Shown here in pieces: positions 1 through 51,529 of a DNA stretch of 64,000 nt. A program made the position numbers and the translations under genes. The first letter of the stretch is position 1; the number at the start of each line of letters is the position of its first letter. The stretch is from Eledone cirrhosa (taxonomy: Eukaryota): the NCBI GenBank assembly GCA_964016885.1, contig OZ024743.1, positions 47,306,001 to 47,370,000 on the forward strand. The letters are read 5' to 3'. The notes below the pieces were generated by a model. The model did not search any database. It was given only the letters and a program-made list of their open reading frames with translations, and had not been told where the DNA came from.

Positions 1-805
1 GGTATTATACCCAATTTATTCATCTCATATATATATATATATATATATATATATATATATACATTCATTTATTATGGGTATTGGTGAGCTTTGTTATTCT
101 AAAGTTTCAACTGTGCACTCACAGGATCACCAGTCTTGTCAGGTGAGTACGCAGGTGAGACTCCAGAGTAACAAGACTTAGCCATAATATACAAATATTT
201 AAACTCTACTTCGGAATTGAGTTTTCATTCTTACGTCCTTCAATAATTCACGTACTCTCAGGTATTGAATAATCGACCCCACCCCGCTTATTAATTTGTC
301 AGATTTTTCCACCCCACCCCGGGTTTTATTCCACCCACACCCCTCTCCATGTTTATCAAATTTTGCTAATCTATCTCCGGCGAAATTTTATTGTAAGTGA
401 TTCATATTGATACATCAGCTGGAGAATCTAATAATTCTATTTTACATTTTTAAAAACATTATATATGACAAGAGAAGAACATTACATGAAATCCCACATT
501 ATTGCCACCCCTCCTATTATTTGGGACCCGAGAGTGCCACCAAACTCTCCTCTCTATGTCACACAAAACTCTCTTTTAATCCCCCTCTGTATATCAATCA
601 CCTCTAAACTCTCCCCCTCTTTATATCTACTACACGGAACTCTCTTCCAATACCCCTCTTTTACTAGCGTCGAGTTGTCGAAGCACTCGATGCTGTTACT
701 GTGTCCGTCTCTCGTTGTGTTGTGCTCTCGTTGTGTTGTGCGGATGTATTTGCAGAGTGTATATAAATTGACAATAAGAATTGCAGCTTTTTGTAAACTT
801 CATTA

Positions 806-864
806 CATATTACAATTGTTTCTATATTGGATCCCGACTCTTAATCGACACTTCTTCAGATATG
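806..864 (-). ncRNA. Type I hammerhead ribozyme motif (palindromic stem III) in fold-back PLE remnant ~680-1000
   Basis: Minus strand reads CATAT-CTGAAGA-[imperfect stem II]-GAAA-CAATTG-TA-ATATG; stem I CATAT/ATATG; arms 760-842 and 888-1000 are inverted copies. Confidence 0.65.
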
Positions 865-1001
865 AGAGTTTATATGGATGAACCCATCAAGAGTCGGGAT
901 CCGATCGCATGATCAAACCCGAGCTGATCGATATGGAAATAATTTGTAATATGTAATAAAGTTTACAAAAAGATGCAATTCTTATTGTCACTTTATATAT
1001 A

Positions 1002-1181
1002 GAGCGGTCGATTGGCAGAATCGTTAGAGGGTTGGACGCCATGCTTTGACGCATAGAGTTTTGGCCCTTTCCATTCTGAGTTCAAATCCCGCTGAGGTTA
1101 ACTTTACCTTTCATCCTTAGGGGGTCGATAAAATAAAGTACCAGTAATGCACTAGGTAATTGATGGCCTTGTGCCAAAAGT
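1002..1181 (+). mobile_element. tRNA-derived SINE, family A
   Basis: A-box-like TGGCAGAATCG, B-box GAGTTCAAATCCC, central CCTTTCATCCTTAGGGGGTCGATAAAATAAAGTACCAG domain, 3' GGCCTTGTGCCAAAAG. Confidence 0.9.
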
Positions 1182-1666
1182 GAGTGTGTGTGTGTGTGAG
1201 TGTGCGTGTGTGTGTGTATGTATGTATGTGTGTTGTGTGTGTGTGTGTGTGTGTGCAGTGTTTTAAAGAAAGAGGACGAATAAGATGTTAGTTAAGCAGT
1301 AAAATCATGTCATTTACTTATCAATAAATACCAAATGTCACTCAGTACGGATGTGCTGGGTGACAATACAAAGGGAGTTAAATGAAACTAAGGCAAGAGT
1401 AATATAGAGGAGGAATGACAGAGTAGAGGGGGGCAAGAGGAAGAGAAAGGGTGGGGGCTGATTAATATTATTTGTAGTGAGGCAAAAAATGTTTCAAGGA
1501 AATAAATACAAATTGCACTGGAATATAATTACAAAACAACATGACCAGATACAAACACACACACACACACATATACATACATTAATGTATACTTAAACAT
1601 ATATAAGTAAATATATATATATCAAGTATATATATGTGTGTGTGTGTGCATACGTAAACATAAATA

Positions 1667-1715
1667 TTTCAGAAGATCCCGTTAAGGGTAAAAGCAGCGA
1701 TTCTTTGCTTAAACT
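1667..1715 (+). ncRNA. Decayed copy of CAGAAGA-core hammerhead family (GAAA changed to AAAA)
   Basis: TTT-CAGAAGA-TCCC-GTTAA-GGGT-AAAA-GCA...TGC-TT-AAAC; near-identical to 13028-13079. Confidence 0.4.
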
Positions 1716-47629: not shown

Positions 47630-47693
47630 ATTTCATTATATATATTTCAGGGATATCATATTAAAAATATGTTATGCCTTCTTCAGACAAAAT
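47630..47693 (-). ncRNA. Hammerhead in the sense-strand 3' pLTR of the PLE
   Basis: ATTTTGT-CTGAAGA-AGGCAT-aa-CATATT-ttt-AATATG-ATATCCCT-GAAA-TATATA-TA-ATGAAAT. Confidence 0.75.
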
Positions 47694-49052
47694 ACAATAT
47701 AAACAGTCTTACAAATAGATAGATTCGACATACCTTTCAACTTCGACTTCTATTTGAAAAGTTGATTTGGTAGTGAAAAAATATTAGGGACAGTTATAAA
47801 AAGAAAGAAAGAAAAACGAAGAAAAAGAAGAAATGCATGCAACTAAATAGAGAGAGATAGATATAGAGAGATATATAGAGAGAAGAAATTCATGCAAAGA
47901 AACAGAGAGAGATATATAGAGAGAGGAAAAAACAGAGGGAGATAGATAGAGAGAGAGAGAGAGAAGAGAGGAGAGAGAGAAAGAGAGAAAATATAGAGAG
48001 ATAGATATAGATAGAGATAGAGAGAAAGAAAATAGGTAGTTGGGCACCAGTTGAATGACGTATCAATGATATATTTATTTATTTATTTATTTATTTAGCT
48101 CTAGTATTAATGTAGAGAGAGATATATGTGGTTAAGAGAGAAAACAGCCGTTACATAGAGAGAAAAGAAAAATATCCAGACATAAACGAGGCAGATTTAA
48201 AACACTATGTTTCATCAATGTAAAAAATATCAATTCGTATAAAACAGGCATTATAATGTAAATATCAGTATTCATGAATGAGACACGTATCAATAATGTG
48301 TGAAAAATAATGATCATATGTCTAGTTTAAAATTCCTAGGTTTATATTAGAGTTGAGATAAATAGAAGGTTAACCCAGATTTTATACTATATACATCCAT
48401 GTGAATTTACGTGATCAGCTCTGCAAATTCCTATTTCACACGAAAACATTCTCATTGTGCTATAAAAATTCTAGTATACATATATGTGTACATACACACA
48501 AATATATATAGAGTCTACATTAATTTTAACAATACTATTCATGTCTTTACTCTACATGATTATCGTTCAAGCATAAATAGAGAACAGATATCAGTATATC
48601 AATAAAAATATCAGAAACAAAAAATAAATAAATAAAAAACAAAAAAATCAAAAAAATATTAAAAATAAAAATATTAAAAATATTAAAAATATTAAAATAA
48701 AAATAAAACATAGTATGCCCCGCAAATCAACCACAGAGATCAACCCTTCAAAGTTAATTGACAATATATTGCCAAGTTCGTTATAAGCATCAGAATCAAA
48801 AGCAAACAAAACCAAAAATTATCTACCAAATCCTGTCTAGCAGAAAGCATTCCAAAAGTTTAGGATACCCATTTGATCTACAGATGGTCTTATATTTAAT
48901 ATAGAAGTTTATCTAGTGTAAAATTTATTCGATATATTTGGAGCATCAGCTTTTAGGGTAGTTTAATTATTCATGAAGAATGTTTAAAATAAAAAGGAAT
49001 CGAAAGATTTATCGGCGAGTTTCATAAATAATTATAAATCAAATTAAATATA

Positions 49053-50588
49053 CTACATTTTAAATTTATATTTATATTTAAAAGTTGAGTTCAATCTATG
49101 TCTGCAGCAACTGAATAAATTTGTCCGTAAATTAAGGGAATTTTTAGATTTTAGTATAAAGAATATCTCCTCCGCGCAGAGGTCACATGTCTCAGAGGAT
49201 GAATTAAAAGGAATCCCTCTTGAGACTATATTCCAAGCCGTTGAATATCCAACGTTATCATGCCTAAGTTGCCAGAGTAAGCCTGATAGTGATGTTGAGG
49301 ATTTTTTGCTTGGATCTGTGAAAGAATTCTTGTGGTTATTATAGCGAAGTTTAAATTCTGTCGAGGTGGAACCAACATAGTTAAAAGAATTTAAGTCCGT
49401 TTTAACATTACAGTTGTATATTATATTTTTAACTAAGCAATTATTATTTAAAGGACATTTAGATCTATCTCTACAGTTACATTTGTTAACTTGGATATTA
49501 TTTATGCTATTATCGGTATTTTGGCTAGGTTTTAAATTCCTATTATTTATTCTATTAATATTTTGTGCTAAATTTTTGGTGGATGAGTAGGTTAATTTTA
49601 TAGTATGTCTATTGAAAATTGAGTGATACCTATGTGTTCTAGGGAAGCGATTATCAAGAGCATTAAAAAATAGTTTAGCGATGTGGGTTTTAATGTTTAG
49701 TGAGAAAGGGGGGGGGGGGGGCAAACCATATTATATTCCTAGTTCTATTTCTTTTTTGGCTTTTGGAATTATTGTAATGCTTTCTATTATAGTTGTTAAA
49801 GTTGTTGCCGTAATTAAAATTGTTGTTATTTTGGTTAGTTTGTCTATTATTATCTATGTACATAATTTTATCACTATATCCTGCTCTAGCTAACGCTTCA
49901 TTGTAATACTGGGCTTTTTCGTCGAAAATCTTTTTATTGGATGAGATTCTAGAGATACGATTTTGAACAGAGTTTACTATAGTATTTTTAACAGATCTGG
50001 GGTGGTTAGAGTTAAAGCTGACATAGTTTAAGTTTTCATTCAACTTGTGAAATGGATAGTGAAGACATGTGTTGAGATTTAATGTTACATCTAGGAAATT
50101 GACTATTCTATGGTTATTCTCAATTTCTATTTTTAGATTAAAGTAATTAAAAAATTGTGTAATTTGTTTTCTTTTTCTATTTAGTTCAGAGTTATTATTT
50201 TCAATAAGTAAAAGCATGTCATCTCTATATAAACCTCCGGTAGCACCGGGTATTTTCCTATGCAGCGAATTGATTAAAAATAGGCCCACAAGGTCAGTTA
50301 CCTGAGCTGAGTCGGATGATCCCATAGTAATGTCGAAATTGTTATCTCTATCTGCTCTGGTCCATAGTTGGTCATTAAATTCTATCAATGTTTTCCTAGC
50401 CGATAATATAATGTGCATTTCATTGCTAGTTAGGTCTGTATGTTTGAATGCGTAATTTAGTGCCTTATTTAGTAGATTAGGGGTAATAGATGAATAATAG
50501 TTAGCGATATCTAGTTGAATAAACTTATTATTATTGTTATATTTAATTTCTTTAAACCACTCAACAACCTCTCCAGTTCCCTTCCATA
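49053..50588 (-). pseudogene. Penelope-like RT with C-terminal GIY-YIG endonuclease; 5' truncated, one frameshift at a G14 run
   Basis: FIQLDIANYYSSI (motif A), ITMGSSDSAQVTDL (B), GLYRDD (C), VNFLDVTL, NSNHP, IIWF..PPFS, CNCR...CPL...C, NIIY...YVG.T..FKLRYNNH, CDLCAEE, CRH. Confidence 0.92.
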
Positions 50589-50620
50589 AATCTATCTATT
50601 TATAAGACTGTTTATATTGT

Positions 50621-50684
50621 ATTTTGTCTGAAGAAGGTATAACATATTTTTAATATGATATCCCTGAAATATATATAATGAAAT
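50621..50684 (+). ncRNA. Hammerhead in the inverted 5' pLTR of the PLE
   Basis: ATTTTGT-CTGAAGA-AGGTAT...ATATCCCT-GAAA-TATATA-TA-ATGAAAT. Confidence 0.75.
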
Positions 50685-51529
50685 AAATATGGTTTTATAA
50701 ATATAGTTTCCATTTATTTAATATCGTAAATATACTCCAAATACTTGTTGAGTGCTTTTATATCAGTTATAAATATTTACTCGTTGTTAACCCAACATTT
50801 TAAATAAAACTTTGCATATATATATATATATATATATATATATATATATATATATATATATATACATATATACTTACGGTAAATATTGATGCAATTCAAT
50901 TCAAGTACTCAACGTCAAGTTGCTTCTTCCAAATAAGAATGGCGGAGTATATTCTATATTATATATATATATATATATATATATATAGAGAGAGAGAGAG
51001 AGAGGGGGGGGGAGAATACAGAGAGAGAGAGACAAGTTTATGTGTAAATATATATATATATATATATATATATGAGTGTGTGTATGTGTATATATATGAG
51101 TGTGTGTGTGTATGTGTATATATATATATGAGTGTGTGTGTGTGTGTATGTCTATATGTATGAGTGTGTGTGTGTGTATGTCTATATATATGAGTGTGTG
51201 TGTGTATGTATATATATATACACACACAAGTATATACAAAAGTGTGTATGTTCGATCCCTCGACAGAATTAACAAGTTGCTAGAAATAACTACCTAATCT
51301 TTCTCCAACTACATCCTACCGTATTAAAAAAGGAACAACACTTTAGACAATATGGTACTATATGGTCATCAGTGAAATACACTATATCGACGTGATGGTT
51401 ACGGCTGGAATGCCTTTGATTTCCTGGTCTACTTAATCAGTATTAACCTGGAGCGGCAACAACAACAACAACACTCACCTGTGAAGTTATATTTGTTGTT
51501 GTTACAGGATAAACTAATATGAACACCAC

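Follow-up and report, generated by a model that had tools for sequence, protein, structure and literature searches.

A duplicated bulged hairpin marks the two 3′ ends of Hydra-clade Penelope-like elements in Eledone cirrhosa

Copies of Penelope-like elements (PLEs) in the genome of Eledone cirrhosa, which we assign to the Hydra clade on their protein motifs, have two discrete 3′ ends, and each end sits 4–9 nt before one copy of a short bulged hairpin. As copies end at two hairpin-defined sites, the tail of these elements is the interval between them. The starting point is a 64,000-nt stretch of contig OZ024743.1 (the window), which lies in a microsatellite-rich part of the 3.0-Gb genome. An initial annotation of the window had listed 11 ACTC/GAGT-closed stems, described them as lying downstream of hammerhead ribozymes in unrelated families, and proposed a conserved cis signal that positions internal initiation by the PLE enzyme. 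The junction spacing and covariation given below speak for such a signal. The proposal was nevertheless incomplete, in that two hairpins are present: the annotation missed a second hairpin, which in full-length units lies 55–100 nt downstream of the first and before the ATG.

RESULTS

The bulged hairpin and its form

A direct look-up read ACTC...GAGT at 11 of the 11 sites listed beforehand. When the sites are oriented by the strand of their hammerhead or tail, each reads ACUC, an inner stem, a 2-nt UN bulge, GAGU and then RC; the element-strand form is RCUC-stem-loop-stem-[UN bulge]-GAGY-RC(U). Of the YACTC...GAGTRC form given by the annotation, the final RC holds at these sites, and the first Y shows no conservation outside this genome. 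The closing pair is A-U in hairpin 1 of this genome, U-A in loci L265 and L267 and at window site 37741, and G-C in 104 of 126 hairpins outside this genome. Bare ACTC...GAGT was rejected as a signal by itself because it is too common: 27 occurrences in 49,250 non-satellite bases, against 14.3 ± 4.0 (maximum 30) in 200 shuffles, a count weakly above chance. The strict form, with bulge, inner stem and RC, has 10 window matches against 0.055 expected and at most 1 in shuffles, but it was itself derived from the 11 window sites and is circular; hence a covariance model was built from 58 hairpins of other organisms. At E ≤ 10 this model has 12 window matches, nine of them listed sites on the predicted strand. 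It misses the long-loop sites at 685–758 and 50907–50948, and it adds a new site at 37741–37774 plus two weak matches. None of the Rfam 15 matches listed for the window (150 of 194, nearly all of them microsatellite-driven microRNA models below cut-off) describes the hairpins, nor does any match in six loci.

The flanks of the 11 sites do not align across about eight groups. The description of the families as unrelated holds to that extent; the sites at 14518 and 24159 belong to one family, those at 37293, 38495 and 50734 are close kin, and the five families traced to an ORF are all Hydra-type. The position downstream of a hammerhead is likewise borne out in part, with an intact core upstream of five sites, a partial, long-stem or mutated core at five, and none at 50907.

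The motif in other organisms

We used a sample of 95 Hydra loci gathered by protein similarity from marine metagenomes and contaminated bins. The motif is present in 64 of the 95, and pattern matches fall on the sense strand 63 times and on the antisense strand 8 times. Sequence-only detection gave 133 distinct hairpins, of which the 126 on the sense strand or with an upstream hammerhead, from 64 loci, were kept. Only the register with the 2-nt bulge pairs, at 0.88, 0.70 and 0.65 for inner pairs one to three. In 117 of the 126 the bulge reads UU, UC or UA, and the first inner pair is Watson–Crick in 110, against at most 75 in 2000 permutations. The alignment of 58 hairpins is 95.9% paired and has 45 cells with double changes, a result that 0 of 500 shuffles reach; 25 of its rows have gaps at inner pairs, its outer stem was a condition for choosing the hairpins, and the count does not correct for kinship. 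The inner stem thus covaries. On the sense strand G.U outnumbers A.C by 10 to 5, a weak bias, and the bases upstream of the hairpin are A/T-rich, without a fixed sequence. Hydra-clade animal retroelements also occur inside several prokaryotic genome bins (L278–L295), where they are probably host contamination.

Among 79 hammerhead-like cores, 38 have no hairpin within 170 nt; by eye, these comprise false cores inside open reading frames (ORFs), short ends terminating ahead of the hairpin, and variant hairpins, for example the TCTC/GAGA form of L265 and L267. The published Hydra consensi of PMC8557442 carry the hairpin, unannotated in the available part of that paper: by eye, both copies are found in Hydra-1_Ajap, one clear copy in Hydra-2_Amil and Hydra-2_Ajap, and a weaker or variant hairpin in Hydra-1_Amil, Hydra-1_Crog and Hydra-1_Obim. 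Six 9-mers occur nine times in the available supplement of Craig et al., where line breaks can hide matches, with five occurrences at Hydra termini and four in Naiad or Chlamys files; inspection of these four by eye placed the motif at no Naiad or Chlamys end. A scan of 20 loci of a Neptune-like family in this genome, four of which were also read, likewise found no such motif in the pseudo-long terminal repeat (pLTR). Compared with Naiad, Chlamys, this Neptune-like family and an RNA fragment of the PAc element (see below), the motif looks Hydra-clade-wide rather than PLE-wide, and the annotation's cross-family signal would be narrowed accordingly to Hydra-clade families.

The Neptune-like family (L494–L513) is a second PLE family here, with a PGRPI motif, a CX4CxxC linker, a hammerhead and (TA)n ends, and without the hairpin. 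A window hammerhead at 6719–6672 on the minus strand resembles it.

Two hairpins and two 3′ ends

Hairpin 2 usually lies 11–32 nt before the ATG. In tandem copies, what follows the long end is the 5′ untranslated region (UTR) of the next unit; in family I, hairpin 2 comes 8 nt later. For two further families the second hairpin was a prediction that the sequence immediately beyond the long end then bore out: C1 gave 400 pattern matches (some double-counted) against 0 in the control, and a full second hairpin was read; H gave 21 against 0, with 12 of 12 loci read. The distance from hammerhead to hairpin in the marine set is bimodal, mostly 41–78 and 105–143 nt.

Families I, H, C2, C1 and G have 35, 14, 20, 27 and 21 short ends, whose modal first microsatellite base lies at −7, −8, −9, −8 and −7 from the hairpin, respectively. 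In the same order they have 54, 16, 14, 32 and 32 long ends, about 63–90 nt beyond the short ones. In total 117 arms end short, 148 end long and 13 fit neither. With TA microhomology allowed, and with probes placed near known junctions, 267 of 277 ends in this genome overlap positions −9 to −4 and 203 include −6. Position −6 is also included in all 8 end/read-through pairs from other organisms, where two more matches were end against end. In a subfamily with G at −7, 26 of 31 ends carry the G and 4 lack it, as expected of primer pairing through G.T wobble. All of these ends lie in A/T-rich 5′ UTR sequence ahead of the bulged hairpin, and the tail is about 55–100 nt long. One full-length family I copy, L311, has its 5′ junction at the foot of hairpin 2.

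Two-armed insertions

Two-armed insertions combine one long and one short arm in 74 of 78 cases, in a count whose six query sets included three with the tail, which were blind to short+short pairs. The other four are L067, a misclassed internal tandem copy, and three short+short units of one local array. For 60 loci chosen by their reverse transcriptase (RT) protein, a continuity filter classed only 37 sense ends, 19 long and 18 short, and 14 continuous arm pairs. All 14 pairs are discordant, eight in one direction and six in the other, and a short sense 3′ end goes with a long inverted arm in 6 of the 14. The annotation had placed the tail and hairpin only on the inverted long arm; that is so in the window, but the 19 long sense ends lead us to reject it for the genome. 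It had also described short arms as stopping before the hairpin position and running into (TA)n, which fits the window arms, save that the end near 1000 has few TA units followed by a short interspersed nuclear element (SINE). The two arms of a family I insertion differ by 0.4–0.6%, as compared to 3.3–3.6% between loci.

The elements

Family I is young and abundant, and its intact copies encode about 740 aa. Locus L061 has a single 742-aa ORF from Met, with YRDD near 360 and YVG near 643, in the order RT and then C-terminal GIY-YIG-type endonuclease. RWR and DKT motifs are present in families I and C1. All 20 family I ORFs have the CxCX5C linker, 19 have CxxC and most have a terminal CxH; the family G ORF also has CxCX5C, and CCHH is absent as judged by eye. 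Judged from sequence, a hammerhead in the pLTR and (TA)n targets are present. Units measure about 3.8 kb in family I and 3.5 kb in C1; their long 3′ UTRs take them beyond the short length (<3 kb) usual for Hydra units. In families H, C1 and G the hairpins are followed by ORFs related to that of family I (43–62% identity in aligned stretches), and C2 is tied to a Hydra-type ORF through N-terminal likeness read by eye. For families A, B and K and the 37741 site no ORF was traced, and all traced families are Hydra-type. These protein motifs place the traced families, in our assignment, among the Hydra-clade PLEs. The best structural match of a modelled Hydra protein (predicted local distance difference test, pLDDT, 91) is TERT. 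Pfam returned no useful family for seven ORF pieces of the window, and a search of viral contigs returned no relative. Among the sequencing runs listed as containing the elements, none was of RNA.

Four-unit head-to-tail arrays of the 3.5-kb C1 element occur at G000:C1:91476605-91487267 and C1:437200343-437210965, and would fit copying of circular or multimeric RNA. Miniature head-to-tail units also exist in family G (L417, L424, L429 and L437; about 165 nt by eye) and C1 (L371/L372; 257 nt). They keep the hammerhead-to-hairpin region, lack the ORF, and look like retrozyme-type non-autonomous Hydra derivatives.

Features of the window

The hairpins, with the hammerheads and insertions that belong to them, are as follows; where a method is given in brackets, the feature was recovered by it.

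685..758, minus strand: hairpin 1 of family A, with a 66-nt insert between ACTC and GAGT and a TC bulge, on the long arm of the fold-back 760–999.
811..859, minus strand: hammerhead core of the family A long arm (core search).
9695..9718, minus strand: hairpin 1 of family B, with a TT bulge and a 5-bp inner stem (pattern and covariance model).
14470..14655, no strand: fold-back insertion of family C1, long arm on the left, short arm ending at ~14655 in (TA)n.
14518..14541, minus strand: hairpin 1 of family C1 (pattern and covariance model).
14692..14983, no strand: fold-back insertion of family C2, short arm on the left (end 14692), long arm on the right.
14909..14933, plus strand: hairpin 1 of family C2, with a TA bulge and a 6-bp inner stem (pattern and covariance model).
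24159..24182, minus strand: hairpin 1 of a second C1-family fold-back, short end at ~24273 (pattern and covariance model).
37293..37312, plus strand: hairpin 1 of a relative of family I, upstream hammerhead core mutated.
37741..37774, minus strand: newly found hairpin with a TCTC/GAGA closing stem and TT bulge, followed by GCT and, ~48 nt on, by a microsatellite (covariance model).
38392..38436, plus strand: hammerhead core upstream of the hairpin at 38495 (core search).
38495..38515, plus strand: hairpin 1 of a relative of family I, with a TC bulge (pattern and covariance model).
41882..41900, minus strand: hairpin 1 of family G, same-strand hammerhead at 41965–41932; the second hairpin of this family is degenerate.
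44772..47229, no strand: two-armed insertion of family H, long arm with tail on the left, short arm ending at ~47229; hammerheads at 44973–44923 (minus) and 47128–47178 (plus), no ORF left inside.
44836..44861, minus strand: hairpin 1 of family H, with a TG bulge and a 5-bp inner stem (pattern and covariance model).
47588..50816, minus strand: 5′-truncated Hydra-clade element of family I, short 3′ end at 47588; hammerhead at 47686–47637, 3′ UTR, ORF remnant and inverted long arm at 50589–50816.
49056..50595, minus strand: family I ORF, RT and endonuclease parts in two frames (50595–49693 and 49730–49056), 98–99% identical to the 742-aa ORF of L061.
50734..50753, plus strand: hairpin 1 of family I, with the tail running to 50816; full-length units go 8 nt further to hairpin 2.
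50907..50948, minus strand: hairpin 1 of family K, in a remnant that consists of the tail alone and is flanked by (TA)n runs; its relatives have an upstream hammerhead.

At 53200–60300 the window also contains a 45-bp satellite of some 153 copies. Its unit corresponds to roughly the first 40 bases of a SINE-like repeat that is abundant and has copies at 1000–1179, 2835–3022, 60183–60376 and elsewhere. Two more minisatellite arrays, at ~29700–35450 and 51430–53190, have long repetitive open frames. Fragments at 27284–27949 (plus), 43850–44882 (minus), 13888–14526 (minus) and 11367–11753 (plus) resemble ORFs of non-LTR (long terminal repeat) retrotransposons, with a weak RVT_1 match only, and other inverted or locally repeated elements lie at 13340–13635, 22456–23066 and 60937–61562.

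DISCUSSION

Mechanism and alternatives

How start sites are chosen in PLEs, and how one-sided tails and inverted arms arise, are presented as open questions in the available parts of PMC8557442 and PMC11167929. By analogy with PAc, we infer that the hairpin positions reverse transcription. It is likely, in our judgement, that the Hydra-clade hairpin, present twice between the hammerhead and the start codon, docks the RT and that a nicked (TA)n end primes synthesis about six bases upstream. The functional form would be the RNA strand. The N-terminal part of the TERT-like RT would bind the stem base, the bulge and the following RCU, and the nicked (TA)n primer would pair with a few A/U bases 5′ of the hairpin and start synthesis. 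The two target strands would be primed one per hairpin, with templates from the same source and possibly by a protein dimer, and the two cDNAs would then be joined head to head; use of one hairpin per target strand would yield one short and one long arm. The more specific version of this mechanism, a two-operator RNA in which a dimeric RT-endonuclease sits on two 25–35-nt hairpins of one transcript and primes each (TA)n strand, is a tentative idea, with the odds somewhat against it.

Several observations weigh against hairpin-directed priming. The outer stem is nearly invariant and contributes little covariation, and the motif is absent from the PAc RNA fragment printed in Fig. S1 of PMC11167929. 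A canonical second hairpin was sought in family G, where only a 4-bp GCAC/GTGC stem without a bulge was found and the long ends are normal; the one C2 read-through has a hairpin 2 with a mismatch. The 277 ends were counted with probes placed close to known junctions, and in so A/T-rich a region the exact base of a junction cannot be fixed. Short+short insertions exist, namely L441 of family A, one of eight two-armed loci read, and the three units of the local array L173. In C1 the arms differ by 3.4% within insertions as compared to 3.7% between loci, and in 9 of 24 pairs of C1 fold-backs (L141–L169) the base 12 nt before hairpin 1 is C in the long arm and T in the short arm, a recurrent difference that a single template does not explain. 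Separately, the C form at this position creates a competing GCTC.

The main rival is recognition of the hairpin as DNA, where the GIY-YIG endonuclease would recognise single-stranded or extruded cDNA and cut at a fixed distance, trimming a longer copy at either site, prior to integration or in its course. In PMC8557442, Craig et al. trace the tails to resolution by the endonuclease. According to PMC11167929, recognition by the D. virilis endonuclease depended on the tail. Ssn nucleases, also of the GIY-YIG type, cleave single-stranded DNA close to a specific repeat (PMC11893778). Fixed spacing and the pairing of long with short arms are compatible with this explanation too, and the counts of G.U and A.C are small. 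We nevertheless hold it to be unlikely: the PAc sites were mapped directly as reverse-transcription starts on RNA (PMC11167929), and the ends seen here vary by a few bases, as primer pairing predicts. An inverted arm might instead come from self-priming or template switching of one cDNA, or from an antisense transcript, with the hairpins merely bounding the copied part. Such an origin was proposed for rotifer Penelope elements from junction palindromes (PMC3846280), and the near-identical arms of family I suit it, but folding back a short-ended cDNA cannot give a tail, yet short sense ends do occur with long inverted arms, and both ends fall at hairpin-defined sites. We give this origin a slim chance.

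There is little to recommend, on balance, an explanation in which the hairpins are 5′ UTR sites for the ORF protein, serving packaging or translational control, while priming falls next to them merely because an A/U-rich strand pairs with (TA)n. The nearness of hairpin 2 to the ATG, the A/T-rich upstream bases without fixed sequence and the normal ends of family G agree with it. However, A/T-rich, TA-containing stretches are common in the UTRs of these elements, yet the ends cluster at the short and long sites, and the non-coding miniature units retain the region. Chance, or shared ancestry without function, is already disfavoured and can be given almost no weight. Bare ACTC...GAGT is indeed common and every traced family comes from one clade, but unalignable flanks coexist with covarying inner pairs, the motif is biased in strand and position, and the outside-built model recovers 9 of the 11 sites.

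If hairpin-directed priming is correct, the hairpin pair would explain the long-puzzling one-sided tail of Hydra elements, and the two-operator rule, if true, would by itself yield one-sided tails, head-to-head insertions and hitch-hiking miniature units, and would supply a portable start signal for programmable internal reverse transcription. As a short motif, covarying across marine animals and present twice, predicts both ends within a few bases, the question becomes one of simple experiments, and curators are given a criterion for where Hydra elements, and the non-autonomous elements derived from them, end. The motif also suggests a small RNA handle for an RT whose synthesis begins within the template.

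Comparison with known systems

The available part of PMC8557442 describes the Hydra clade as C-terminal endonuclease-containing (EN+) elements with RWx, DKT, a CxCX5C linker, CxxC and CxH, in generally short units. The present elements share these protein motifs with them, as well as the pLTR hammerhead, the (TA)n targets and the occurrence of partial tandems and of inverted 5′ copies, and differ in the tail, which is 30–40 nt there. An extension at one end of inverted pLTRs is also recorded for EN+ PLEs in the Fig. 2 legend of PMC8557442 and in the Adineta vaga Penelope paper (PMC3846280), where the tail lies on one inverted pLTR. That literature, as far as available, is descriptive, whereas the present analysis links both ends to a repeated sequence-structure motif and counts how they pair.

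The closest biochemical parallel is PAc, a Poseidon element of Anolis carolinensis for which two internal start sites bound the tail in vitro (Frangieh et al. 2024, PMC11167929). Both systems have two adjacent internal starts or discrete 3′ ends downstream of the hammerhead, with the tail as the stretch between them, and PAc likewise cuts and extends both target strands at A/T-rich targets. PAc starts inside an AC-rich stem-loop within the ORF, a trait that the present elements lack, and the available text of PMC11167929 describes no cross-family signal and no rule that pairs long with short arms. Neither the motif nor its duplication is described in the available parts of PMC11167929, PMC8557442, PMC3846280, bioRxiv 2026.07.22.740005, PMC4209133, PMC7761336, PMC8969392 and PMC11893778. 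Full-text searches returned nothing closer, in line with the annotation, to which no description as a cross-family motif was known; older subscription papers and Repbase notes fall outside that coverage, as do some supplements that might show related structures. Internal initiation at two sites and one-sided tails are already published, while the hairpin motif and its duplication are apparently undescribed.

PLEs and telomerase are sister groups. R2 and L1, which have 3′ recognition structures, begin at the 3′ end of their RNA, and L1 twin priming inverts without duplicating the terminus. In telomerase, a nearby RNA stem places the RT on its template, where the short repeat primer aligns through a few base pairs. 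The boundary element of telomerase is found on the 5′ side of the template and halts synthesis, whereas the Hydra hairpin lies 3′ of the start. In both systems, however, an RT of the TERT/PLE lineage is positioned by a neighbouring RNA stem, as we propose for the Hydra side, and under the two-operator rule the hairpin arrangement would be an ancestral-type counterpart of the positioning stems of telomerase RNA.

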